In this document: positions 49,193 through 64,000 of the stretch, piece by piece
Position numbering within the stretch: position 1 is the stretch's first letter
How the letters are laid out: the number at the start of each line of letters is the position of its first letter
From: Polaribacter sp.
GTDB lineage: Bacteria > Bacteroidota > Bacteroidia > Flavobacteriales > Flavobacteriaceae
DNA length: 64,000 nt
Direction: 5' to 3'
Assembly (NCBI RefSeq): GCF_024639685.1
Contig: NZ_JAHEHX010000002.1
Location: forward strand, 132,825-196,824
Position numbers and translations under genes: made by a program
Notes under the pieces: model-generated
Databases searched by the model: none
Told to the model about the DNA's origin: nothing
What the model saw: the letters and a program-made list of their open reading frames with translations, nothing else

Positions 49193-49903
49193 ATGAAGAA
49201 AATATTTACACTCCTTTTTGCGCTAATCTCTTTTTTAGAAGTGAAAGCGCAGACCTCTATCTTTTCTAATTTATTAGAAAAACACGTTACCAGTGAAGGT
49301 GTTGTAGACTATGCAGCATTTAAGGCTGATGAAGTTCGATTAGACATATACCTTACCTATTTAGAAAATACAAATCCAGATAAATCATGGTCTAAAAGTC
49401 AACAAAAAGCTTTTTGGATGAATGCTTACAATGCGTATACCATAAAATTGATTTTAGAGAACTACCCTATTAACTCGATTATGGATATTAAAAAAGATGG
49501 AAAATCGGCTTGGAAAATTCCATTTGCTAAAGTAGGTAGAAAAACTTACACCTTAAATTATATTGAACACGAAATATTGCGAAAACAACTTTTTGACCCT
49601 AGAATTCATGTGGGTGTAAACTGTGCATCTATCTCTTGCCCTAAAATTTTAAACAAAGTCTTTACTGCTGGAAATATAGATACTACTTTAGAAATATTAA
49701 TGAAAGAATTCATCAATGATTCTTCAAGAAATAAAATCGGGAAAAAGTACATACAAATCTCTTCTATTTTTGATTGGTTTCAGCAAGATTTCACAAAAAA
49801 CGGTAGTGTAATTGATTACTTAAACAACTATACAGAATTCAAAATTAACGCAAAAGCAAATATCTCATATTTGAAATACGATTGGGGTTTGAACAGTAAA
49901 TAA
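49193..49903 (+). CDS. DUF547 domain secreted protein
   Basis: Signal peptide, VDYAAF, AFWMNAYNA, IEHEILR, RIHVGVNCASISCP. Confidence 0.9.
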   Translation: MKKIFTLLFALISFLEVKAQTSIFSNLLEKHVTSEGVVDYAAFKADEVRLDIYLTYLENTNPDKSWSKSQQKAFWMNAYNAYTIKLILENYPINSIMDIKKDGKSAWKIPFAKVGRKTYTLNYIEHEILRKQLFDPRIHVGVNCASISCPKILNKVFTAGNIDTTLEILMKEFINDSSRNKIGKKYIQISSIFDWFQQDFTKNGSVIDYLNNYTEFKINAKANISYLKYDWGLNSK

Positions 49904-49938: not shown

Positions 49939-50274
49939 ATGTCTAAAACATATTATGATGATGCTGATTTGAGAAAATTCAGCAAAATTACAGAATGGAG
50001 TGAAGAATTAGGAAACAAGTTTTTCGATTATTATGGAAAAGTTTTTGAAGAAGGAGCATTAACTGCTCGTGAAAAATCATTAATAGCACTGGCTGTGGCG
50101 CATACAGAACAATGTCCTTATTGTATAGATGCCTATACAAAAGATGGCTTACAAAGAGGTATAACAAAACCAGAAATGATGGAAGCCATTCATGTGGGCG
50201 CTGCAATTAAAAGTGGTGCAACTTTGGTTCATGGAGTTCAAATGATGAACAAAGTGAACAAATTAGAAATGTAA
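49939..50274 (+). CDS. Arsenosugar-associated peroxidase-like protein (CMD/AhpD family)
   Basis: LTAREKSLIALAVA, CPYC; directly upstream of arsS. Confidence 0.88.
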   Translation: MSKTYYDDADLRKFSKITEWSEELGNKFFDYYGKVFEEGALTAREKSLIALAVAHTEQCPYCIDAYTKDGLQRGITKPEMMEAIHVGAAIKSGATLVHGVQMMNKVNKLEM

Positions 50275-50319: not shown

Positions 50320-50457
50320 ATACTCGCAAAAGCGAGTATCTATAAAACCAAACCATTATTTTCTTCAAACATAAATTAAAGAACCAAAAAAAAGATTCTG
50401 AATTAAATTCAGAATCATAATAAAAAATAAAAGTGATACTGAATCAAATTCAGCATG
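50320..50457. repeat. Three palindromes (two REP-like) upstream of arsS
   Basis: ATACTCGC-aaaa-GCGAGTAT 50320-50339; GATTCTGAATT-a-AATTCAGAATC 50394-50416; GATACTGAATCAAATTCAGCATG 50435-50457. Confidence 0.6.
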
Positions 50458-51507
50458 AAAAAATCATTAAAAGCCAGAAATAACGATATTGCCAATACTT
50501 CTCGTCAACTAGAAATCCTTTCCAACGGAATTTTTGCCGACGGTGAGTTGCCTACATTTGCAAAAAAGATTAAAGAAACCAACCAATTTCCGTTACGTCC
50601 AAAAAAATTAGAAATTCTTCAAATCAACTTGGGCTATATGTGCAATCAAGTATGTGAGCATTGTCATGTTGATGCTGGGCCAGACAGAAAAGAAATTATG
50701 ACTGTTGAAACGATGCAGCAATGCTTGGAGATTGTCAAAAAAACAAAGGCACATACCTTAGATTTAACTGGTGGTGCTCCTGAAATGAATCCTAATTTTA
50801 GATGGTTTGTAGAAGAAGCTTCTAAAGCAGGTATTAAAGATTTTATCGTACGTTCTAACCTAACCATTATCAGAGCGAACAAAAAATTTCACGATTTACC
50901 GGAATTCTTTAAAAAACACAATGTTCATATTGTGTCTTCTATGCCTCATTGGACACGTGGAAAGACAGATAAACAAAGAGGAGATGGTGTTTTTGATAAA
51001 TCGATTAAAGCCTTACAAGAACTAAATGCTGTGGGTTATGGAATGCCTGACTCTAATTTAAAACTAGACTTGGTATATAATCCTTCTGGTGCTTTTTTAC
51101 CTGGAGATCAACAAGCTTTAGAAGCTGAATTCAAAAAAGCATTGAAAGCTGATTTTGACATTCACTTTCATAGTCTTTTTGCCATTACAAATTTACCTAT
51201 AAGCAGGTTTTTAGATTACTTAATTGCCTCAGACAATTATGAAGATTATATGTATGCTTTACTAGATGCATACAATCCTGCAGCAGTAGAAAATGTAATG
51301 TGTACCAATACCATTTCTATTAGTTGGGAGGGTTGGCTGTATGACTGCGATTTTAACCAAATGCTTAACTTAAAAGTAGCCAGTAAAATTAAACACGTTT
51401 CTGACTATAATGAAGAATTGTTACAAGATAGAAACATAATTATAAACCAACATTGTTATGGGTGTACAGCAGGAGCAGGAAGTAGTTGCCAAGGAACTGT
51501 TGCCTAA
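50455..51507 (+). CDS. arsS: Arsenosugar biosynthesis radical SAM protein
   Basis: QINLGYMCNQVCEHCHV (CxxxCxxC), DLTGGAPEMNP, YDCDFNQ, C-terminal HCYGCTAGAGSSCQG. Confidence 0.93.
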   Translation: MKKSLKARNNDIANTSRQLEILSNGIFADGELPTFAKKIKETNQFPLRPKKLEILQINLGYMCNQVCEHCHVDAGPDRKEIMTVETMQQCLEIVKKTKAHTLDLTGGAPEMNPNFRWFVEEASKAGIKDFIVRSNLTIIRANKKFHDLPEFFKKHNVHIVSSMPHWTRGKTDKQRGDGVFDKSIKALQELNAVGYGMPDSNLKLDLVYNPSGAFLPGDQQALEAEFKKALKADFDIHFHSLFAITNLPISRFLDYLIASDNYEDYMYALLDAYNPAAVENVMCTNTISISWEGWLYDCDFNQMLNLKVASKIKHVSDYNEELLQDRNIIINQHCYGCTAGAGSSCQGTVA

Positions 51508-51524
51508 TTAAAAATATAAATATC

Positions 51525-52493
51525 ATGAGTTATTTAGAGACTACACACAACGTTTATAAAGAAGCAGCTTTAACTCCAGATGTGGGGTTATGTTGTACAA
51601 CAAATCCGATTTGGGAATTACCAGGACTAAAAATTCCTAGAATTATGCAAGAAATGAATTATGGTTGTGGCTCTACTGTTCATGCTAGAGATTTAACCAA
51701 TAACCCTAAAATGTTATATGTAGGAGTTGGAGGCGGAATGGAGTTATTACAATTTGCATATTTCAACAGAAATAAAGGTGGTGTTATTGGCTTAGATGTG
51801 GTTGATGAAATGTTAGAGGCATCTCGTAAAAACTTTAAAATTGCCGAAGAACAAAACGATTGGTTTCAAAGCAATTTTGTAGATCTAAGAAAAGGAGATG
51901 CCATGAATTTACCGGTTGAAGACAACTCCATTGATGTGGCTGCACAAAACTGTTTGTTTAATATTTTTAAATCTGACGATTTAAAAAAAGCAATTGCAGA
52001 AATGTATAGAGTATTAAAACCACATGGTCGTTTAGTGATGAGTGATCCTACTTGCGAACAACCAATGAATGATACTTTGCGAAACGATGAACGTTTGCGA
52101 GCGCTTTGTTTAAGTGGGAGTTTACCAATTGCTGACTATGTGAAAGTATTAACAGATGCTGGCTTTGGAACTATAGAAATAAGAGCAAGAAAACCATATC
52201 GAATTCTAGACCCAAAAAAATACCCTACAGAAGAATTAATTTACATAGAGTCTATTGAAGTTGCTGCTATTAAAGATCCAATGCCTTCAGATGGCCCTTG
52301 TATTTTTACTGGAAAAACAGCAATTTATTATGGTAATGAAGATTTTTTTGATGACAATGCAGGTCATGTATTGCTAAAAAATCAGCCTTTAGCTATTTGC
52401 GATAAAACTGCTGGTGTTCTTGCTGGTTTAGGCAGAACTGATATTTTTATCTCTGAAAGTACTTACCACTATGATGGAGGTGGATGTTGTTAA
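51525..52493 (+). CDS. arsM: Arsenite S-adenosylmethionine methyltransferase
   Basis: GLCCT, NYGCG, YVGVGGG SAM motif, AQNCLFN, ALCLSG, terminal GGCC; ATG 51525. Confidence 0.9.
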   Translation: MSYLETTHNVYKEAALTPDVGLCCTTNPIWELPGLKIPRIMQEMNYGCGSTVHARDLTNNPKMLYVGVGGGMELLQFAYFNRNKGGVIGLDVVDEMLEASRKNFKIAEEQNDWFQSNFVDLRKGDAMNLPVEDNSIDVAAQNCLFNIFKSDDLKKAIAEMYRVLKPHGRLVMSDPTCEQPMNDTLRNDERLRALCLSGSLPIADYVKVLTDAGFGTIEIRARKPYRILDPKKYPTEELIYIESIEVAAIKDPMPSDGPCIFTGKTAIYYGNEDFFDDNAGHVLLKNQPLAICDKTAGVLAGLGRTDIFISESTYHYDGGGCC

Positions 52494-52597: not shown

Positions 52598-53089
52598 ATG
52601 AAAAACCTTTTAATTCTTTTTTTAGTAATAAGTACAACTACGCTTGGACAAACAAAATTAGACAAACTTCTTTCTAAGTGGAACAAGAGAAATGTACCTT
52701 ACATATCAGTAGAAACACTGGCCTTACCTAAAACAAATGCAATTTTATTAGATGCTAGAGATCAAAGTGAATTTGATGTAAGTCATTTAAAAAATGCAGT
52801 TCGTGTAGGATATAATGATTTTAAATTAAAACAAACAATACTCAATTTACCAAAAGATAAAGATGTAAAAATTGTTGTGTATTGCTCATTGGGTATTCGC
52901 TCAGAAACTGTGGCACATAAATTAATGCAAGAAGGCTATACCAATATCTACAATTTATATGGAGGAATTTTTGAATGGAAAAATGCCAACTTTAAGGTGG
53001 TAGATACCTTAGGAAATCCCACAGAAAAAGTACATACATTCAACAAAAGTTGGAGCAAATGGCTTCATAGAGGAAAGAAAGTGTATTAA
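52598..53089 (+). CDS. Secreted rhodanese-like domain protein
   Basis: Signal peptide, LLDAR..EFDVSHL, YCSLGIRS, NLYGGIFEW. Confidence 0.88.
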   Translation: MKNLLILFLVISTTTLGQTKLDKLLSKWNKRNVPYISVETLALPKTNAILLDARDQSEFDVSHLKNAVRVGYNDFKLKQTILNLPKDKDVKIVVYCSLGIRSETVAHKLMQEGYTNIYNLYGGIFEWKNANFKVVDTLGNPTEKVHTFNKSWSKWLHRGKKVY

Positions 53090-53199: not shown

Positions 53200-53814
53200 A
53201 TGCACAAAAACCTTCTACTTATTTTTACCAGAAACCCTGAATTAGGTAAAGTAAAAACGCGCTTGGCAAAAACAGTTGGCGATGAAACTGCTTTAGAAAT
53301 CTATAAATTTCTCCTAGAAAAGACTAGAGATGAGTCGCGTAATGTAAACGCTGACAAAGCTGTTTACTACTCTGTAAAAGTGAGAGACAATGATATTTGG
53401 AATGCTGAAACCTATCAAAAATTTACTCAAAAAGGCGAAGATTTAGGGTATAGAATGCAGTATGCCTTTGAGCAAGGATTTAAAACGGGTTATGAAAAAG
53501 TGCTAATCATTGGTAGCGATTTATATGATTTATCCTCAGAAAATATAGATTATGCTTTTCGTACATTAGACAATCATGATGTAGTTCTAGGGCCAGCAGA
53601 AGATGGTGGTTATTACTTATTAGGCATGAAGACCTTACATGCATCTGTTTTTCATAATAAAGAATGGGGTACATCCACAGTTCAAAAAGACACCTTAGCC
53701 AATTTAACCCATCAAAAGGTAAAATTATTAGAAACTAAAAATGATATAGATTTGTATGAGGATATTGAAGGCATCCCAGAAATTATGAATCGCTTTATCC
53801 ATACTAAAAAATAA
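53200..53814 (+). CDS. TIGR04282-type (DUF2064) arsenosugar-associated transferase
   Basis: IFTRNPELGKVKTRLA, LIIGSD, LGPAEDGGYYLLG, DID. Confidence 0.9.
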   Translation: MHKNLLLIFTRNPELGKVKTRLAKTVGDETALEIYKFLLEKTRDESRNVNADKAVYYSVKVRDNDIWNAETYQKFTQKGEDLGYRMQYAFEQGFKTGYEKVLIIGSDLYDLSSENIDYAFRTLDNHDVVLGPAEDGGYYLLGMKTLHASVFHNKEWGTSTVQKDTLANLTHQKVKLLETKNDIDLYEDIEGIPEIMNRFIHTKK

Positions 53815-53830
53815 AATACATTTGCGCATT

Positions 53831-54646
53831 ATGAAAGCAGCACAGTTACAAGAAACCATCACTTTTTTAAAAGAACAAGGCATCACTGCTCCAGAGGTAG
53901 GTATTGTATTAGGTACTGGTTTAGGAAAACTGGTAAACAAAATAGAAATCGTAAAAGAGATTGCGTATACAGATATTCCTAACTTTCCTATTGCTACAGT
54001 AGAATTTCATTCAGGTAGAATTATCTACGGAAAATTATCTGGTAAAATGGTTGTGGTGATGTCTGGGCGTTTTCATTTATATGAAGGATATACGCCTTGG
54101 GAGGTTACCTATGGTATACGAACCATGCATGGCTTAGGCATTCAGCATTTATTAATTTCTAATGCAGCAGGTGCTATTAACTTAGATTATACCAAAGGCG
54201 ATTTAATGTTGATTGAAGATCATATTAATCTACAAGGCAGTTCCCCTTTAGCTTTTAAAGGCGCTAATGAATTCGGAAACATCTTTGCAGATATGCTTGA
54301 ACCCTATTCAAAAAAGATGAATACAGCACTGAATTTAATTGCTACCGAAAATAACATTCAACTGCATACAGGAACGTATGCAAGTGTATTAGGGCCACAG
54401 TTAGAAACTAAAGCCGAATATAGAATGTTGCAAATTTTAGAGGTAGATGCAGTAGGCATGAGTACTGTACCAGAAGTAATTGTGGCCAAGCAATTGAATT
54501 TACCTTGTGCAGCTATTTCTGTATTAACAGATGAATGTGATCCTAAGAATTTACAACCTGTAGACATTGCTGAAATTATTGCTATTGCTGGCCAAGCAGA
54601 ACCTAAAATGATTATACTATTCAAAGAGGTGCTAGCTAAGTTGTAA
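53831..54646 (+). CDS. Purine nucleoside phosphorylase (trimeric class) with Asp at the base-specificity position
   Basis: [37 protein letters not shown]; ATG 53831. Confidence 0.92.
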
Positions 54647-54668
54647 TTGTACCTTTCTGATTTTATCT

Positions 54669-55628
54669 ATGAACCACAGCTTTACATCTTTTATTTTAGA
54701 AAAAACAGGCGCTACTTCTTTACAAGAAGTGGAGCTCATTCAAGAATTATGGAGTGGCTATGGGTACATTAAGCGCTTTGCCTTAGAAGGTAGCCCTTTG
54801 AAAACTGTGGTGGTTAAAAATGTACGATACCCAAAACAACAGCAACACCCAAGAGGTTGGAACTCCCAATTTGGTCATGAACGCAAGTTAAAATCTTATC
54901 AAGTGGAAACAGCTTGGTACACCCAATATGCACAACACAGCAAAGCACGTTTGCCCAAATGTTATGGTATTCGTCAACAAAATAACGAAGTGTGTATTGT
55001 TCTAGAAGATTTAGATGCTGCTGGTTACACATATCGAAAACAAGATGTTTCTTGGCAAGGAATTGACAACTGCTTGGCATGGCTTGCCAATTTTCATGCA
55101 TCTTATTTAGGGCAAACCCCTGAAAATTTATGGGCTATTGGTAGCTACTGGCATTTGGCTACAAGACCGCAAGAATTAGCAGTTTTAGCAGATGCTCCTT
55201 TAAAAAAAGCAGCACCCTTCATCGATCAGAAATTAAACGATTGCAAGTATACAACCTTTATTCATGGAGATGCAAAATTGGCCAACTTTTGTTTTTCTGC
55301 CAATGATGAAGTAGCCGGTGTTGATTTTCAATATGTTGGTGGTGGTTGTGGTATAAAAGATGTTGCCTATTTTATCGGTAGCTGCTTACCAGAGCAAGAA
55401 TGCGAACGTTTAGAAGCCGATATTCTTACCACCTATTTTACGCATTTGCATGCAGCCTTAGACACAGAACACAAAGCATTAGAAAAAGAATGGCGTACTT
55501 TATACCCTTATGCTTGGGCAGATTTTCATCGTTTTTTAAAAGGATGGAGTCCTGGGCATTGGAAACTAAATTCGTATAGCGAACGTATCACGCAACAGGT
55601 AATTATAGAACTTTCTAATGGACTTTAA
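54669..55628 (+). CDS. Small-molecule phosphotransferase (APH/choline/ecdysteroid kinase-like)
   Basis: [31 protein letters not shown]. Confidence 0.85.
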
Positions 55629-56436
55629 CGTATTGGCAAAAATTGCTTCAAAGGCTGTTCTAGAAGCAGGTAAGGTAATACAGAATGCCTTACATAAACC
55701 TATTGAAGTACAACATAAGGAAGGTGGCAACACCTTAGCATCACAAGTAGTTACTGCTATAGATGTAGCCTGTGAAAAAGTAATTCTAAAACACTTAGCA
55801 CCTACTTGTATAAAGTACGATCTTGGGTTGTTGACGGAAGAAACCGAAGACGACCAAAGCCGATTTACCAAAGACTATTTTTGGTGTATAGACCCTTTAG
55901 ATGGCACATTGCCCTTTATTAAGAAACATCCAGGCTTTTCGGTTTCCATAGCACTAGTCTCTAAAGAAGGTATTCCAGTAATTGGAGTAGTTTTAGACCC
56001 TACAAATAGTACCTTATATGTGGGCATAAAAGACCAAGGTGCGTTTAAAAATGGAAAAACTTGGGAGTTACCTCAACCCAAAAATACACTTACATTCGTT
56101 AGCGATAAAACCTTAGCAAACACCCCACAAAAAGAACAAATTTTAGGGCATATTGAAAAGCATTTAGAAGAATTGGGTTTAACACAATTTAAGGAAGTTT
56201 CAGGTGGTGGAGCTGTGTTGAATGCCCTTTTAGTAGCTGAACACAGACCAGCACTACTCATAAAACCTACCAAATTAGCACTTGGAGGTGGAAGCCTATG
56301 GGATTTTGCAGCAACTGTTTGTATTTTTAGTGAATTGGATTTAAAAGCCACATCATATAACGGTAATCCTTTAGATTTGAACTCTAAAACTAGCACATTT
56401 TTAAATACACAAGGGGTATATTTTTATTCTTTTTAA
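55618..56436 (+). CDS. Inositol monophosphatase/CysQ-family phosphatase
   Basis: [18 protein letters not shown]; overlaps kinase stop by 11 nt. Confidence 0.9.
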
Positions 56437-56494
56437 GAATTAATTAGACTTTTCTTAAAGACAATTATTGCTTTTTGTATATTTGTTAAATACA

Positions 56495-57382
56495 ATGAAC
56501 AAGTATTTAAACATTATAAAAAACTCGTATTCAGGATACTGGAACTACCTGAAAAACTCCGTTTTGCTGGAGTTAAATTGGGAGAATTACTTTTATGGGT
56601 TACTAATTATTTCTTTTGTAGTTTGGGGTCTAGAAGCTATGTTTCCTTGGCGTAAAAACCAATCTTTGTTTCGTAAAGATTTTTGGTTGGATACCTTTTA
56701 CATGTTCTTTAACTTTTTTCTATTAAATCTTATTGTTTTAATTGCTTTATCCAACACTGCAGCCGAAATCTTTAATGATTTGTTAGGGTTTATCGGTTTA
56801 ACTATAAGTAGTTTTCAGTTGCTAGATTTAAATATCCTACCTTTTTTACTACGTATCTTTATTTTCTTTATTGTAGTCGATTTTACTCAATGGTGGACGC
56901 ATCGTTTACTGCATAGAGTCGATTTTTTATGGAATTTTCATAAAGTACATCACTCCGTAAAAGAGATGGGCTTTGCAGCCCACTTGCGTTACCACTGGAT
57001 GGAACCTGTAATTTACAATTCGTTGCGCTATATTCCGCTTGCCATTATTGGCGGGTTTTCTCCACAAGATGTTGGTATTGTTCATTTCTTTAACATTACT
57101 ATTGGACATCTTAACCATGCAAATATTAATTGGGATTATGGATGGTTAAAATATATTTTAAACAATCCAAAAATGCACATTTGGCATCATGCTAAAGAGT
57201 TGCCTAAAGACCATAAGCATGGGGTGAATTTTGCACTAACCTTGAGTGTTTGGGACTACTTATTCAAAACCAATTATATTCCTTATTCAGGAAGAGATAT
57301 TGAACTTGGTTTTGAAGATGATTCGAGCTTTCCAAAAAATTTTGTGCAACAGGAATTCTATCCATTAAGTAAAAGTAAATAG
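56495..57382 (+). CDS. Fatty acid hydroxylase/sterol desaturase family membrane di-iron enzyme
   Basis: WTHRLLH, HKVHHS, HLNH, HIWHH His boxes; own TATATTTG box at 56478-56485. Confidence 0.9.
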   Translation: MNKYLNIIKNSYSGYWNYLKNSVLLELNWENYFYGLLIISFVVWGLEAMFPWRKNQSLFRKDFWLDTFYMFFNFFLLNLIVLIALSNTAAEIFNDLLGFIGLTISSFQLLDLNILPFLLRIFIFFIVVDFTQWWTHRLLHRVDFLWNFHKVHHSVKEMGFAAHLRYHWMEPVIYNSLRYIPLAIIGGFSPQDVGIVHFFNITIGHLNHANINWDYGWLKYILNNPKMHIWHHAKELPKDHKHGVNFALTLSVWDYLFKTNYIPYSGRDIELGFEDDSSFPKNFVQQEFYPLSKSK

Positions 57383-58014: not shown

Positions 58015-59019
58015 TTACCTGTTAGCATATAAGCTTGTAATAAGTACTTCTGTAGGTTTATTTTGCGGTGTAAATCTATTGTTTTTTAAACCGCCAACAA
58101 ATTCATGGTTATGAAACCACTTCCATAAAAAACCTCCTGCAAACCAATCCTCTCCCCAAAACTGATTATAAATGGCTTGTAGCGCATTTGTTTGTGCGTT
58201 AAGGTTTACTTTATCTTGAGTGCGAGAAAATTCCCATGGCCTTTTAGCATTGTAATCAATACTTCTATACCCAAACTCGGTAAATAACACAGGCTTTTTA
58301 AACTTTTGCTGTATGGCTAGTATTGCCTATTTGTGAATGTCCCAACTTTCTTCTAACTCTAAAATAGTTGGAGTTTTTGATGCGCTTAATGGAAAATAAG
58401 CATCTATTCCAATAAAATCTAGTTCGCCCCACAAAGAAAAGCGCTTGTATTCGTCCCAATTAACAGCATATGTGAGTTTACCTGAATAAATAGATCTGAT
58501 TTCCTTTATTAAGGAGCTCCAATAATTGGGTCTATTGAGCACGAACTCTTTTAACTCTGTCCCAATGCAAAGTAAACCTGCTTTTAACTGTTCTGCGGCT
58601 TTTGCGTAAGTAAGTATATATTTTCTGTAAGAAGATTCCAATAACTTCCACCCTTCTTTTGTATTTGGTTTTAAATTACCTGTAAAAACCCCTCTACGTA
58701 ACCATATATGCGGTTTAATCATAATATGAATTCCTGATTTTTGAAACTCATTGGCATACTGTAGTAATCCATTTTCCGTTTCGCCAAACCACTCTCCTTT
58801 AGTGTTAAATTCAATTTTTGGAATAGCTTTATCTCTAATAATACCATAAGGCATTAACGCTATATAGTTGCTATTTGTTTTTAAAACAGGAGTAATATGT
58901 TGCTGATTAATTGGTTCTCTAGAAGCCACAAAGCTTAATCCATTTATTTTTTGAGACAAAATTTTAGAGGAAATACTTAAAAAGATACCTAGAATTAAAA
59001 TAGTACACTTTACATTCAT
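58015..59019 (-). pseudogene. Glycoside hydrolase family 113 (beta-mannanase-like) split by one in-frame TAG
   Basis: IKPHIW, CIGTEL, LTYAVNWD, IGIDAYFPL, then TAG 58327-58329 and in-frame AILAIQQKFKKPVLFTEFGYRS...FAGGFLWKW. Confidence 0.85.
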
Positions 59020-59208
59020 AAGAGTTAAAAATACAGTTTTTTTTATTACAAATTTTTCTAAAAATAAAAAAGGAGACTGGACTTTTATTAACTCGAGAGA
59101 AAACAATGCTATATTCGCTCTTTTTATTTATAATCATTTAAAATTGGATATTTCTTTTAAGTTCTTAACTTTAGCTTCGACAGAATGTAAAGAATCTATC
59201 AACTAATT

Positions 59209-60558
59209 ATGGAACATATTGTAATTATTGGAAATGGAATTTCTGGAGTTACAGCTGCAAGACATATCAGAAAAAATTCTGACAAACAGATTACTATTGT
59301 CTCTGCTGAAACCAAATACTTTTTTTCTAGAACAGCACTCATGTACGTGTACATGGGACATATGAAATTTGAACATACTCAACCTTACGAAAATTGGTTT
59401 TGGGATAAGAATAACATCAACTTAAAAGAAGGGTATGTAACGCAGGTAAACACTGATGATAAGTTACTAAGTTTTAAAGACAACTCTACTTTATCCTATG
59501 ATAAACTAATCATAGCTACAGGTTCTAAACCCAATAAATTTGGCTGGCCAGGAGAGGATTTAAAAGGAGTTTTAGGCATGTACCACAAACAAGATCTAGA
59601 AAACTTAGAAATCTATGCTCCTAATAAAGAAGTGTGTAAAAGAGCAGTAATTGTTGGTGGTGGTTTAATAGGAATTGAATTGGCAGAAATGCTAAGAAGT
59701 AGAGACATACCTGTTACCTTTTTGGTACGTGAAAGTAGTTTTTGGAATGAGGTTTTACCTGCCCAAGAATCTGAAATGATTAATAAACATATTTTAGAAC
59801 ATCACATAGACCTGCGATTAAGCACTCATTTAAAAGAGATAAAATCTGATGAAAACGGAAATGTAAAGTCTGTTGTTATCGAAGAAACTGGCGAAGAAAT
59901 ACCTTGTAATGTACTAGGTTTAACTGCAGGGGTTTCACCAAACATCAACTTTTTAAAAGATTCTGGAATAGAGACTAAAAAAGGTGTTTTGGTAAACCGA
60001 TTTCTAGAAACCAATATAAAAGATGTTTATGCGATTGGTGATTGTGCAGAGCAAAACGAAGCTATTGGTCTACGAAGAAATATTGAAGCTATTTGGTACA
60101 CAGGAAGAATGATGGGTGAAACATTAGCACAAACTATTTGTGGAAAACCTAGAGAGTACAACCCTGGACATTGGTTTAACTCCGCTAAATTTTTAGACAT
60201 TGAATACCAAACCTATGGTTGGGTATTTAGCGAGAGAAATAAAAAAAAGTATGAAACCTATTTTCAGTGGAAACATTCCAAACAAAATAGTTGCATTACC
60301 ATTTCTTACGATGCTAAAACTCAACAATTTTTAGGGATAAATACCTTCGGAATTCGAATGCGTCACGAGAAATTTAATCAATGGTTAACCGAAAAACAAT
60401 CTATACAATATGTTTTAAAGCATTTAAAAGATGCTAATTTTGATCCTGAATTTTATAGCTTATACGAAAAACAAATTATAGCCAAATTCAACATAGAAAA
60501 CAATACACAACTAAGAGTAAAACCAAAAAGTTGGAAGCGTATATTTTCTAAAATATAA
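59209..60558 (+). CDS. NAD(P)/FAD-dependent oxidoreductase (pyridine nucleotide-disulfide/rubredoxin reductase-like)
   Basis: IGNGISG, IIATGS, VGGGLIG, YAIGDCAE. Confidence 0.9.
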   Translation: MEHIVIIGNGISGVTAARHIRKNSDKQITIVSAETKYFFSRTALMYVYMGHMKFEHTQPYENWFWDKNNINLKEGYVTQVNTDDKLLSFKDNSTLSYDKLIIATGSKPNKFGWPGEDLKGVLGMYHKQDLENLEIYAPNKEVCKRAVIVGGGLIGIELAEMLRSRDIPVTFLVRESSFWNEVLPAQESEMINKHILEHHIDLRLSTHLKEIKSDENGNVKSVVIEETGEEIPCNVLGLTAGVSPNINFLKDSGIETKKGVLVNRFLETNIKDVYAIGDCAEQNEAIGLRRNIEAIWYTGRMMGETLAQTICGKPREYNPGHWFNSAKFLDIEYQTYGWVFSERNKKKYETYFQWKHSKQNSCITISYDAKTQQFLGINTFGIRMRHEKFNQWLTEKQSIQYVLKHLKDANFDPEFYSLYEKQIIAKFNIENNTQLRVKPKSWKRIFSKI

Positions 60559-60584
60559 ATCATACACCTTAAAAAACAGATTCT

Positions 60585-62207
60585 TTGAAAATTTTACAAC
60601 AATTAGGCTTAACCGTTTTTCTAATAGCTCTTTTGCTATTTACATCGAGTATTTTTACAGGTAATTTTTCCATGAAACAGAAAGACTTTGATGCTTTTTT
60701 GACTGAAAAAAACTATAAAAGCGAACATTTTACTGAAGCTTTACAAAAAGCTATTGTAACACCAGAACCCTTGTCTATATTTGAATTTTCTAAAAGAGTT
60801 AGACAAGCTGTTGCTGATAATAACGCTTATTACAATACTCTAATTAAAAAATACAATGCAGAGAAAAACTGGAAGAAAAAAGGAGCTCAATATCAATATA
60901 AAATTAACGGCAAACCACATAGCATTAGTTTTGAAATTGCTAAAAAAGCAGGTAATGGATTTGTAAAAGAAAATGCAGGACTTAGCTGGCTGCTTACCTT
61001 TGGGCTCGGTATTGTTGGAGCACTGCTTTTTATACTACCTAACATTATTTTATTAGGAAAGCCAGGTATTAAAAATAATCATATTTATCAGCAATCTGCA
61101 ACCAACAGAGGTTTTATGGCTTGGTTGGTTTTAGTATACCTCGTCGTTTTTTACTTAGTACTCTATTTTATGGCAGACTATTTAGTAAATTGGACCTTTA
61201 TGCTAGACCCAATAAGCAAGGCTCTAAATGGAGGACCTGCTTCACAATGGTTTGTTTATGGTTTTCTATATTGTACTATTATGCTAACCATGGGGGTTAG
61301 AATGTATATTAAATACAGACACAACAAATACCAAATTATTAGAACAACCTCGGTACTATTCTTTCAAATTGTTTTTGCTTTTCTTATTCCGGAAATTATG
61401 ACCAGCTTAAACATGCCAGGTTATGATTTTAAAAATGCGTTTCCTCTAGACTATGATTTCTTTTTTGAATGGAATTTAAAAAGCTTAACCGAAAGTGGTG
61501 GTATAGGTATTTTTATTCTAGTTTGGGGTATTGTATTAACTTTAATCATTGTGCCAGTTATGGTATACTTCTTTGGTAAAAGATGGTATTGTTCTTGGGT
61601 TTGTGGTTGTGGTGGATTAGCTGAAACTTTGGGCGACCCTTACAGACAACATTCTAACAAAAGCTTAAGTGCATGGAAGTTAGAACGCTGGTTAATACAC
61701 TCAGTATTGGTTTTTTCTTTAGTAATGACTTTAGTAACCTTGTATTGTTATTTTTCTGGAACTTCTTATTTTTTAGGTATAAAGTCGCAATGGATTAAAG
61801 ATACATACAGCTTTTTAATAGGTGCATGGTTTGCAGGTGTTATTGGTACAGGCTTCTACCCAATTTTTGGAAATAGAGTGTGGTGTAGATTTGGTTGTCC
61901 ATTGGCTGCTTATTTAGGTTTAGTGCAACGTTTTAAATCGAGATTTAGAATTACCACCAATGGCGGGCAGTGTATTTCTTGTGGAAACTGTTCTACATAC
62001 TGTGAACAAGGAATTGATGTAAGAGCCTATGCACAAAAAGGAGAAAACATTGTAAGATCTAGCTGTGTAGGTTGTGGAATTTGTTCTGCTGTGTGTCCTA
62101 GAGGAGTGCTGAAATTAGAAAATGGCCCTGAAGAAGGCAGAATTAATCCTACTGAAATTTTGTTAGGGAATGATGTTGACTTAATGCAATTGGTAAATAA
62201 AAAATAG
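60585..62207 (+). CDS. Membrane polyferredoxin (4Fe-4S binding, NapH/RdxA-like)
   Basis: Many TM helices, WYCSWVCGCG, WCRFGCP, CISCGNCSTYC, CVGCGICSAVCP; TTG start. Confidence 0.9.
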   Translation: MKILQQLGLTVFLIALLLFTSSIFTGNFSMKQKDFDAFLTEKNYKSEHFTEALQKAIVTPEPLSIFEFSKRVRQAVADNNAYYNTLIKKYNAEKNWKKKGAQYQYKINGKPHSISFEIAKKAGNGFVKENAGLSWLLTFGLGIVGALLFILPNIILLGKPGIKNNHIYQQSATNRGFMAWLVLVYLVVFYLVLYFMADYLVNWTFMLDPISKALNGGPASQWFVYGFLYCTIMLTMGVRMYIKYRHNKYQIIRTTSVLFFQIVFAFLIPEIMTSLNMPGYDFKNAFPLDYDFFFEWNLKSLTESGGIGIFILVWGIVLTLIIVPVMVYFFGKRWYCSWVCGCGGLAETLGDPYRQHSNKSLSAWKLERWLIHSVLVFSLVMTLVTLYCYFSGTSYFLGIKSQWIKDTYSFLIGAWFAGVIGTGFYPIFGNRVWCRFGCPLAAYLGLVQRFKSRFRITTNGGQCISCGNCSTYCEQGIDVRAYAQKGENIVRSSCVGCGICSAVCPRGVLKLENGPEEGRINPTEILLGNDVDLMQLVNKK

Positions 62208-62337
62208 AGTTCACTTAACAAAGACTTCATAATTTATTTAACATAAAAGTCTTATAAGTATAAAATATTGATACTTTTACTGCCAAAAAATAATTGCAAG
62301 CGAATATTTTAATAAAAATAACATCGATTTTAGTAAA

Positions 62338-63030
62338 ATGAATACCTTAGTTACCGTAATTATCCCTGCATACAACGAGCAAGATGCTATTACTAAAGTC
62401 ATACAAGATATCCCCGAATTTGTAAATGAAATTATTGTTGTAAGCAATAACTCTACAGACAACACTGAAGAAAAGGCAAAAAAAGCAGGTGCAACAGTAT
62501 TACAGGAACAAAGAAAAGGATACGGGTATGCCTGTTTAAAAGGGCTACATTATATTGTACAGCAAAATACAAAACCAGAAATCATTGTATTCTTAGATGG
62601 AGATTACTCTGATTATCCAGAACAGTTAACCGAAATTATTACACCTATACTGCAAGAAAACATTGACTTTGTATTAGGTTCACGTGTAAAAGAATTGAGA
62701 GAAGTAGGTGCAATGACACCACAACAAATTTTCGGAAATTGGTTAGCTACTTTTTTAATGAAGGTGTTTTTTAATGCCCAATTTACAGATCTAGGGCCCT
62801 TTAGAGCTATAAAATACTCAAAACTATTAACGTTAGGAATGGAGGACAAAACGTATGGGTGGACTGTAGAAATGCAGCTAAAGATTTTAAAACAAAAAAT
62901 GAGTTATAGAGAACTACCTGTAAAGTATCGAAACAGAATTGGAGTTTCAAAAGTTTCAGGAACTTTAAAAGGTACTATATTTGCAGGAGTTAAAATTCTT
63001 AGCTGGATTTTTAAATATAGTTTTAAGTAA
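62338..63030 (+). CDS. GT2 glycosyltransferase, polyprenol-phosphate glycosyltransferase (DPM1-like)
   Basis: VIIPAYNE, GYGYAC, FLDGDYSD, LGSR, TDLGPFRAI. Confidence 0.88.
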   Translation: MNTLVTVIIPAYNEQDAITKVIQDIPEFVNEIIVVSNNSTDNTEEKAKKAGATVLQEQRKGYGYACLKGLHYIVQQNTKPEIIVFLDGDYSDYPEQLTEIITPILQENIDFVLGSRVKELREVGAMTPQQIFGNWLATFLMKVFFNAQFTDLGPFRAIKYSKLLTLGMEDKTYGWTVEMQLKILKQKMSYRELPVKYRNRIGVSKVSGTLKGTIFAGVKILSWIFKYSFK

Positions 63031-64000
63031 TGATTTTAGAGTACGCAATCATCTTTATTTACACCATTTGTTTAATGCTAATTTTCATGTATGCATTAGC
63101 ACAATTAAACCTTCTTATCAACTACCTTAAACACAAGAATAAAGAAGACAATGCTGCTAAATTTGATTTTAGAAATCCAGATGAAATTCCGTTTGTAACC
63201 ATACAACTTCCTGTTTATAATGAACTGTATGTAATGAAGCGACTTTTAAAAAATATCGCAAAAATAGACTACCCAATTCAAAAATTAGAAATTCAAGTTT
63301 TAGACGATTCTACAGATGAATCTGTAGAAAAGACAGCAAAACATGTTAAAAAAATTCAAGAATTAGGAATTGATATTCAACATATTAGAAGAAGTAATAG
63401 AGAAGGATTTAAAGCTGGAGCTTTAAAAGAAGGGTTAAAAATGGCAAAAGGTGAATTTATTGCTATTTTTGATGCCGATTTTTTACCAAAAAAAGATTGG
63501 CTCTACCAAACTGTTCCGTATTTTAAAGATTCAAGTATTGGTGTAGTACAAACCAGATGGGGACATATCAATAGAAATTACTCTACCCTAACAAGAATAC
63601 AAGCGTTTATGTTAGATGCCCACTTTACGCTGGAGCAAGTGGGTAGAAATAGCAAAGGACACTTTATTAATTTTAATGGAACTGCAGGTATTTGGAGAAA
63701 AGAATGTATTTATGATGCTGGTAATTGGCAGGGAGACACTTTAACTGAAGATATTGATTTAAGTTATAGAGCACAGCTAAATAATTGGAAGTTTAAATAT
63801 TTAGAACATGTAGAAACACCAGCGGAATTACCTGTAATTATTAGTGCTGCAAGATCTCAACAATTTAGATGGAATAAAGGTGGAGCTGAGAACTTTCAGA
63901 AAATGATTAAAAGAATTGTTACCTGTAAAAACGTTTCTTTTAAAACCAAAGTTCATGGGATTTTACACTTATTAAACAGCTCTATGTTTACCTGTATTTT
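63030..64000 (+). CDS. Processive GT2, cellulose synthase-like (CslA-type), 3' end beyond window edge
   Basis: Translated by hand from ATG 63030 (TAATG overlap): TIQLPVYNE, QVLDDSTD, GFKAGAL, IFDADF, NFNGTAGIWR, TEDIDLS, QQFRW (D,D,D,QxxRW). Confidence 0.9.
   Translation, partial: MILEYAIIFIYTICLMLIFMYALAQLNLLINYLKHKNKEDNAAKFDFRNPDEIPFVTIQLPVYNELYVMKRLLKNIAKIDYPIQKLEIQVLDDSTDESVEKTAKHVKKIQELGIDIQHIRRSNREGFKAGALKEGLKMAKGEFIAIFDADFLPKKDWLYQTVPYFKDSSIGVVQTRWGHINRNYSTLTRIQAFMLDAHFTLEQVGRNSKGHFINFNGTAGIWRKECIYDAGNWQGDTLTEDIDLSYRAQLNNWKFKYLEHVETPAELPVIISAARSQQFRWNKGGAENFQKMIKRIVTCKNVSFKTKVHGILHLLNSSMFTCI

Follow-up and report, generated by a model that had tools for sequence, protein, structure and literature searches.

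A kinase and phosphatase gene pair within a Polaribacter arsenosugar operon is probably an inserted, autonomous module and not a general component of arsenosugar synthesis

Two overlapping genes, predicted to encode a small-molecule kinase and a phosphatase, lie within an arsenosugar operon of Polaribacter sp., and their position raises the question of whether the two enzymes take part in the making of arsenosugars. The locus was analysed in a stretch of 64,000 nucleotides (assembly GCF_024639685.1, contig NZ_JAHEHX010000002.1, positions 132,825 to 196,824), which is termed the window below. A previous sequence-only reading of this DNA had offered two explanations: the pair comprises true tailoring enzymes of the arsenosugar route, or it is an inserted two-gene cassette that rides on the transcription of the operon. 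Our analysis indicates that the pair is probably an autonomous kinase/phosphatase module that was inserted once into the Polaribacter arsenosugar operon, and that it is not a general component of the synthesis.

The distribution of the pair relative to ArsS, the radical-SAM arsenosugar enzyme, carries much of this argument. Twenty ArsS regions were compared, one from each of 20 other Flavobacteriaceae genera, and the order that recurs among them is AhpD-like protein, ArsS, (rhodanese), TIGR04282 protein, purine-nucleoside phosphorylase (PNP), ArsM, (fatty-acid-hydroxylase-family membrane protein, FAH) and DUF547 protein. PNP is present in 16 of these clusters, FAH in 11 and DUF547 in 13, and the kinase/phosphatase pair is present in none of the 20, including those from six genomes that carry the pair elsewhere. 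In a family sample of 150 genera (kinase at E ≤ 1e-30, ArsS over its cut-off), ArsS was detected in 117 and the kinase in nine; six of the nine kinase genomes also carry ArsS, which is not above background. The kinase is never near ArsS in this sample, with the two genes separated by 119, 378 or 542 kb or located on other contigs. Among 300 genomes of the phylum that are at least 90% complete (kinase at E ≤ 1e-60), the kinase occurs in 18 and ArsS in 109, and the five genomes that have both never have them adjacent, leaving 13 of the 18 kinase carriers without ArsS. The family richest in kinase carriers (49 genomes) has 16 with the kinase, 13 with ArsS and three with both, compared with about four expected by chance.

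The surroundings of the pair outside Polaribacter are likewise unrelated to arsenic. No arsenic gene was found within ~10 kb of the pair in Flavilitoribacter, Lentimicrobium or nine other Flavobacteriaceae genera, nor in 14 genomes of two other families or on three fusion-bearing contigs. Genes for TPR, TerB, RtcB, LysM/BON, SnoaL and AhpC-like proteins were each seen once as neighbours. The proposal that the two proteins are true tailoring enzymes of the arsenosugar route is therefore disfavoured by their absence from the 20 other-genus clusters, the lack of co-occurrence with ArsS and the unrelated neighbourhoods elsewhere. The sequence-only reading had itself named a pair found mostly without ArsS clusters as evidence that would speak against tailoring, and phylogenetic profiling against arsS shows a pair that occurs mostly away from this gene. 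From these genome comparisons, the pair probably does not serve arsenosugar synthesis in general.

The kinase does have one constant neighbour, which is the phosphatase; no other neighbour recurs. Among close-ortholog loci for which downstream DNA was available, the kinase gene is followed immediately by a phosphatase gene on the same strand at nine of nine Polaribacter loci (a tenth is cut by a contig end) and at the two loci of Saprospiraceae and Lentimicrobium. The same order was observed in six of nine other Flavobacteriaceae genera (the three exceptions being kinase-only) and in all 14 genomes from two further families of the phylum. Relatives of the kinase were sought exhaustively among 50%-identity cluster representatives, which yielded 1496, 313 of them at E ≤ 1e-30. 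Approximately 12 of the best 150 relatives are 537-679 amino acids long, and all ten long homologs that were scanned are fusions of an N-terminal kinase to a C-terminal inositol monophosphatase (IMPase) domain. Two such fusions were confirmed as single open reading frames (ORFs) in DNA, and one fusion comes from a metagenome-assembled genome (MAG) of Lentisphaeria. Fusion combined with synteny classically points to two activities that share the same substrate, and because this pattern is seen here, the kinase and phosphatase are expected to share one. Prediction of a complex between the two proteins gave a score of 0.00, which is below the mark and was counted neither for nor against the pairing.

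Some homologs depart from this arrangement. Kinase homologs at four loci (L013 in genome G133, L015 in G003, L017 in G140, and L052) have no adjacent IMPase gene; they are 49-64% identical to the kinase of the window, and their ORFs are ~322-327 amino acids long where mapped. A protein query detected no IMPase ortholog in genomes G003, G133 and G140. The family therefore includes a branch in which the kinase stands alone. In a family of another class (f27, genomes G288-G502), the pair occurs in 16 of 49 genomes, compared with nine of 150 in Flavobacteriaceae, and the kinases of this family are 60-66% identical to that of the window. This abundance and identity suggest strong constraint and/or transfer between classes.

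Known systems offer a partial parallel. The bifunctional NADP phosphatase/NAD kinase of Methanocaldococcus (NF010678) and PFK-2/FBPase-2 likewise join a kinase and a phosphatase for one metabolite, and the Methanocaldococcus protein, like the pair, uses an IMPase-family phosphatase (NF010678 matches the phosphatase of the window weakly, at 6.3e-5). In contrast to the Methanocaldococcus fusion, the kinase of the window has an APH fold and not an NAD-kinase fold, and the order is kinase followed by phosphatase. A search of the literature on bacterial EcKL kinases and arsenosugar clusters returned no characterised homolog, no substrate for this branch of kinases and no description of the pair. 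Each gene is thus an uncharacterised member of a well-known superfamily, and a split or fused module of an EcKL-type kinase with an IMPase appears to be undescribed in the searchable literature.

How the module came to reside in the operon can be read from its junctions. Profile scans with Pfam and NCBIfam models identified a complete arsenosugar gene set on the forward strand at 49.9-57.4 kb of the window, with the following features.

49939-50274, forward strand: AhpD-like 'arsenosugar biosynthesis-associated peroxidase-like protein' (TIGR04169, 189.5 bits; cut-off 120).
50455-51507, forward strand: ArsS, radical-SAM arsenosugar enzyme (TIGR04167, 439.9 bits; cut-off 300).
51486-52493, forward strand: arsenosugar-type ArsM methyltransferase (NF038099, 578 bits; cut-off 400).
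52598-53089, forward strand: rhodanese-domain protein (NF045521, 204 bits), which recurs in the clusters of other genera.
53200-53814, forward strand: TIGR04282/DUF2064 CofC-like 'arsenosugar biosynthesis glycosyltransferase' (TIGR04282, 216.6 bits).
53822-54646, forward strand: PNP, a conserved cluster member (PRK08202, 312.9 bits; in 16/20 other-genus clusters).
54647-54668, forward strand: PNP-kinase spacer of 22 nucleotides, the left junction of the insertion, with no terminator-like site and no TANNTTTG box.
54669-55628, forward strand: EcKL/APH-fold small-molecule kinase of 319 amino acids (Pfam EcKL, 4.5e-17).
55618-56436, forward strand: IMPase-superfamily (CysQ-like) phosphatase of 272 amino acids (Pfam Inositol_P, 2.3e-36), overlapping the kinase gene by 11 nucleotides.
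56437-56494, forward strand: spacer of 58 nucleotides before FAH, forming the right-hand junction of the insertion and containing a TATATTTG box (56478-56485).
56495-57382, forward strand: FAH (Pfam FA_hydroxylase, 9.7e-27; in 11/20 other-genus clusters), whose likely start is the ATG at 56495.

Exact ORF coordinates bear out the two junctions that had been noted earlier, namely a kinase start 22 nucleotides past the phosphorylase (PNP ends at 54646 and the kinase begins at 54669) and an 11-nucleotide overlap of the kinase and phosphatase ORFs (54669-55628 and 55618-56436). Matches to the kinase occur in 12 of 80 Polaribacter species. Ten of these are close orthologs (63-90% identity), all located directly after PNP, and the remaining two are a divergent paralog located elsewhere; the closest public loci are from Polaribacter MAGs, at 90% identity. 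In ten closed Polaribacter genomes without the kinase, PNP is followed by FAH (three), by ArsM (five) or by neither (two). In two of these genomes the empty site has no spacer: the stop codon of PNP runs straight into the start codon of FAH (TAAATG), as would be expected of translational coupling between the two genes. Where these empty sites have no spacer, the window holds 22 nucleotides, the two genes and a 58-nucleotide spacer.

All cluster-embedded kinases fall in one clade of a quick maximum-likelihood tree (SH-aLRT 83). The sister group of this clade holds the kinases from Saprospiraceae, Lentimicrobium and other genera. The PNPs of pair-carrying loci lie in one Polaribacter subclade, interspersed with those of empty-site genomes. 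The empty sites and the single clade support the inserted two-gene cassette that the sequence-only reading had given as its second explanation. Because the embedded kinases form one clade, a single insertion is favoured, and the data fit one such event followed by vertical descent with some losses or recombination. A kinase homolog with 85% identity (P0002), from a MAG labelled 'Winogradskyella sp.', nests inside the Polaribacter clade, which possibly reflects mis-binning or a recent transfer.

Transcription of the cassette with the operon, as had been proposed, is in keeping with what was observed. No terminator-like hairpin was found between PNP and the kinase, and the 22-nucleotide gap leaves no room for a promoter. 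Because the gap is this short and contains no terminator-like site, we infer co-transcription, and the pair is likely transcribed by read-through from the operon promoter. After the phosphatase gene, a terminator scan revealed no convincing terminator. The gene that follows, FAH, had been assigned a promoter box of its own. A TATATTTG box is indeed present at 56478-56485, but TANNTTTG occurs in the window at the frequency expected by chance (123 seen, 115 expected), and a promoter for FAH is therefore not established. A sigma-70 promoter scan returned fewer sites than shuffled sequences, and the sigma-70 model is not applicable to Bacteroidota. An AT-rich inverted repeat at 56473-56523, with 21-nucleotide arms that are 81% complementary and nine nucleotides apart, covers the FAH start codon and the TATATTTG box. 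This repeat might affect FAH translation after the insertion.

Assignment of the two proteins to their superfamilies agrees with what had been proposed for them. The kinase scores above the Pfam cut-offs for both EcKL (62.7 bits, 4.5e-17; cut-off 22) and APH (28.1 bits, 2e-6; cut-off 23.2), in keeping with an APH/choline-kinase fold. Its motifs VVVK50, E80, H199-G-D-A-K-L-A-N206 and D219-F-Q are invariant across 96 homologs down to 38% identity, and they include the beta-3 lysine (K50), the helix-C glutamate (E80), the catalytic loop (H199, D201 and N206) and the metal-binding aspartate (D219). An AF2 model depicts a confident bilobal kinase (pLDDT 95.8). The phosphatase matches Pfam Inositol_P (PF00459) with 126 bits (2.3e-36; cut-off 27), its motifs E74-E75, D92-P-L-D-G-T97 and W228-D229 are invariant among homologs, and AF2 confidently predicts an IMPase fold for it (pLDDT 93.1), such that family match, metal motifs and fold all agree with an IMPase-superfamily enzyme.

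The kinase shares its fold, the catalytic Lys and Glu, the H-G-D-x-x-x-x-N loop and the D-F-Q motif with the EcKL/CHK-like branch of the APH superfamily (PF02958, PF01636, PF07914), but it differs from that branch in having no sequence-matching solved structure and in fold similarities (TM scores) of only 0.4-0.59. Top matches in Foldseek are all APH-fold kinases (probability 1.00, TM 0.4-0.59, 11-15% identity) and include putative APHs, YtaA, aminopropanol kinase, APH(3'), amicoumacin kinase, an MtnK-containing model and homoserine kinase II. When the PDB was searched by sequence, the kinase returned nothing at E ≤ 1 and its family profile returned nothing beyond the Cdc7 protein-kinase catalytic loop (E = 0.002); the look-alikes in the ESM Atlas are all unnamed EcKL/APH clusters. 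The catalytic loop, HGDAKLAN, carries a lysine, and a lysine in this loop is a protein-kinase trait. No NCBIfam family, the MtnK model included, matches the kinase at E ≤ 0.01. An identity as 5-methylthioribose kinase (MtnK) was considered and rejected, there being no equivalog match and only a fold match at rank 23 with 12% identity (TM 0.59).

Both genes are intact and under purifying selection. Compared with six Polaribacter orthologs, the ratio of nonsynonymous to synonymous substitution rates (dN/dS) lies between 0.10 and 0.16 for the kinase and between 0.05 and 0.29 for the phosphatase. These ratios are similar to those of the rhodanese and TIGR04282 genes, and synonymous divergence (dS) is comparable to that of the flanking cluster genes. 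Since the catalytic motifs are kept, the models are confident and selection is purifying, both are taken as working genes that, judged from their sequences, have diverged together with the cluster.

We favour, as the probable explanation of this locus, an autonomous module composed of an ATP-dependent EcKL/APH-fold kinase and a metal-dependent IMPase-superfamily phosphomonoesterase, which would both act on one small molecule. Across Bacteroidota and other phyla the two parts of the module would travel together, fused into one polypeptide in some bacteria. In one Polaribacter sublineage the module would have been inserted a single time, separating PNP from FAH, which are otherwise translationally coupled, and since then it would have been inherited with the operon and probably transcribed from the operon promoter. 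The kinase may phosphorylate a hydroxyl of the metabolite, and two modes of action could follow. In the first, the kinase would add a second phosphate and the phosphatase would strip the original one, for a net relocation of phosphate. In the second, the phosphatase would remove the same phosphate, such that opposing activities would set the pool of the phosphorylated metabolite, a control likened to that of the archaeal NADP-phosphatase/NAD-kinase fusion or of PFK-2/FBPase-2. Several IMPase-superfamily branches prefer bisphosphates; because of this preference, and because the phosphatase is required only where a kinase is present, these two mechanisms are deemed the most likely.

Several observations weigh against this interpretation. 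GC content at third codon positions (GC3) is only slightly raised in the two genes (0.284 and 0.253, compared with a window mean of 0.225 and a standard deviation of 0.038). The pair is flanked by no mobile-element hallmarks, with direct and inverted repeats of only chance size, and the tree that indicates a single origin is a quick one with moderate support. Codon composition had been suggested earlier as a check for horizontal origin, and with GC3 within ~1.5 standard deviations of the window it provides no usable signal. Given that GC3 is barely raised and flanking repeats are lacking, the insertion is considered old and its mechanism not visible. The cassette has also been kept between otherwise coupled genes through deep divergence (dS above 1) in ~10 species. 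This retention in the operon would fit equally a function recruited in this lineage, and the sugar 1-phosphate expected from PNP is a plausible substrate for a kinase together with a bisphosphate-type phosphatase.

These points lead to an alternative that we consider unlikely, in which the imported pair was co-opted in a Polaribacter sublineage for tailoring or salvage of an intermediate of the arsenosugar route. The product of ArsS is an adenosyl arsenical (summarised in PMC12159101), and the expected product of PNP is 5-deoxy-5-dimethylarsinoyl-ribose-1-phosphate. One version of this proposal involves phosphorylation of 5-deoxy-5-dimethylarsinoyl-ribose or its adenosine precursor at the anomeric or 2/3-hydroxyl, followed by dephosphorylation, and a modified arsenosugar or a salvage route would then be expected in these species. 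APH-fold kinases include 5-methylthioribose kinase, whose substrate is a 5-substituted ribose, and an MtnK-containing model is among the fold matches (rank 23), but no NCBIfam model, including that of MtnK, matches the kinase. The pair is inside the operon on the same strand, 22 nucleotides after PNP with no terminator-like site between them, it occupies the same position in all ten close Polaribacter orthologs, and, under purifying selection, its divergence has kept pace with that of the flanking genes. However, this adjacency traces to a single evolutionary event, and position therefore carries little weight. Moreover, 68 of 80 Polaribacter species and all 20 of the other-genus clusters manage without the pair, the same pair (60-69% identity) is present in genomes without ArsS, and the phosphorylase of the cluster makes an anomeric kinase unnecessary.

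A co-opted role in Polaribacter on the expected product of PNP or on the adenosyl arsenical of ArsS, for which position is the evidence, is similarly doubtful. It is also rather improbable that a new bifunctional kinase/phosphatase, split or fused, that relocates or gates phosphate on a common metabolite was co-opted for a ribose-1-phosphate- or nucleoside-type arsenical produced by ArsS and PNP, in which case a phosphorylated or otherwise altered arsenosugar intermediate would be expected.

In another alternative, the phosphatase is the 3'(2'),5'-bisphosphate nucleotidase (CysQ) or inositol monophosphatase of the cell, and the kinase is an unrelated neighbour, such as a phosphotransferase for antibiotics or xenobiotics. 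Among NCBIfam models the phosphatase is matched best by CysQ (TIGR01331, 5.4e-31), homologs are named 'CysQ family protein' by NCBI, and by TM score its model is closest to Bacteroides CysQ (3b8b, 0.78), followed by an Entamoeba PAP nucleotidase (0.77). The Foldseek matches of the kinase are mostly aminoglycoside phosphotransferases, plus amicoumacin kinase. Yet the TIGR01331 score of 108.1 bits is far under the cut-off of 228.8, and the phosphatase falls below every NCBIfam cut-off. A profile search places it between SuhB/IMPase (1.6e-32) and CysQ (3.7e-23), and Foldseek yields E values down to 3e-18 against SuhB and IMPase. It shares the IMPase fold and the E-E, D-P-x-D-G-T and W-D metal/phosphate motifs with CysQ and SuhB/IMPase (PF00459), but differs from both in being obligatorily paired or fused with a kinase. 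The phosphatase is the sole PF00459 member in this 2.46-Mb, 100%-complete genome, and no IMPase-family protein was found in five closed Polaribacter genomes that lack the pair. Because these relatives have no IMPase-family protein, the phosphatase is not a housekeeping CysQ or SuhB in Polaribacter; it comes and goes with the kinase. With a phosphatase that is gained and lost with the kinase and fused to it in several lineages, and a kinase that shows only 11-15% identity and TM scores of 0.4-0.59 to resistance kinases, this alternative is very unlikely.

With the pair regarded as an inserted module, the remainder of the operon conforms largely to the canonical Flavobacteriaceae cluster, whose AhpD-like, ArsS, rhodanese, TIGR04282, PNP, ArsM, FAH and DUF547 proteins are all present in the window. 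It differs from that cluster in that ArsM has moved ahead of the rhodanese gene in Polaribacter, and in that the kinase/phosphatase pair separates PNP from FAH. ArsS is the single protein over the TIGR04167 cut-off genome-wide. The DUF547 protein (49193-49903) heads the cluster here and is at its tail in 13 of the 20 other-genus clusters, making it a further conserved, uncharacterised companion of ArsS. A 23-nucleotide near-perfect palindrome, GATTCTGAATT-A-AATTCAGAATC, with an adjoining T/A run, is located at 50394-50416, inside the 180-nucleotide gap between the AhpD-like gene and ArsS, and could be an operator or a bidirectional terminator.

Variations on the cluster were also observed beyond the window. 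A second, divergent DUF2064/TIGR04282-like paralog (31-35% identity) adjoins the AhpD-like and ArsS genes where the cluster is split; the loci concerned are L029, L033, L039, L040, L044, L045, L055, L056, L059 and L060. In several Polaribacter species (for example, at locus L005 of P. reichenbachii, a carrier of the embedded pair), a SusC/SusD-type block lies between ArsS and the part comprising rhodanese, TIGR04282 and PNP. Downstream of the operon, the region at 58327-63998 of the window encodes a GH113-like protein (minus strand), a pyridine-nucleotide-disulphide oxidoreductase, a 4Fe-4S membrane protein, a GT2 glycosyltransferase and the next gene. These genes recur beside ArsS clusters in many genera, and the arsenosugar neighbourhood probably extends beyond the core operon.

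The earlier observation that the pair is embedded in the arsenosugar operon is thus real, its tailoring interpretation is largely refuted, and the interest that remains is in the bifunctional module. For the arsenic pathway, the model is pruned: the kinase and phosphatase are dropped as general partners of ArsS, and PNP, the TIGR04282 protein, rhodanese, FAH and the DUF547 protein, which recur with ArsS, merit attention in the route. FAH looks like a real step of it, possibly on the lipid or aglycone side. The kinase-IMPase module itself is widespread and strongly conserved, with 313 clusters at E ≤ 1e-30 and 60-69% identity across classes, and it is fused in some bacteria. A function established for the fused enzyme could annotate hundreds of clusters that are now named 'oxidoreductase family' and 'CysQ family'.

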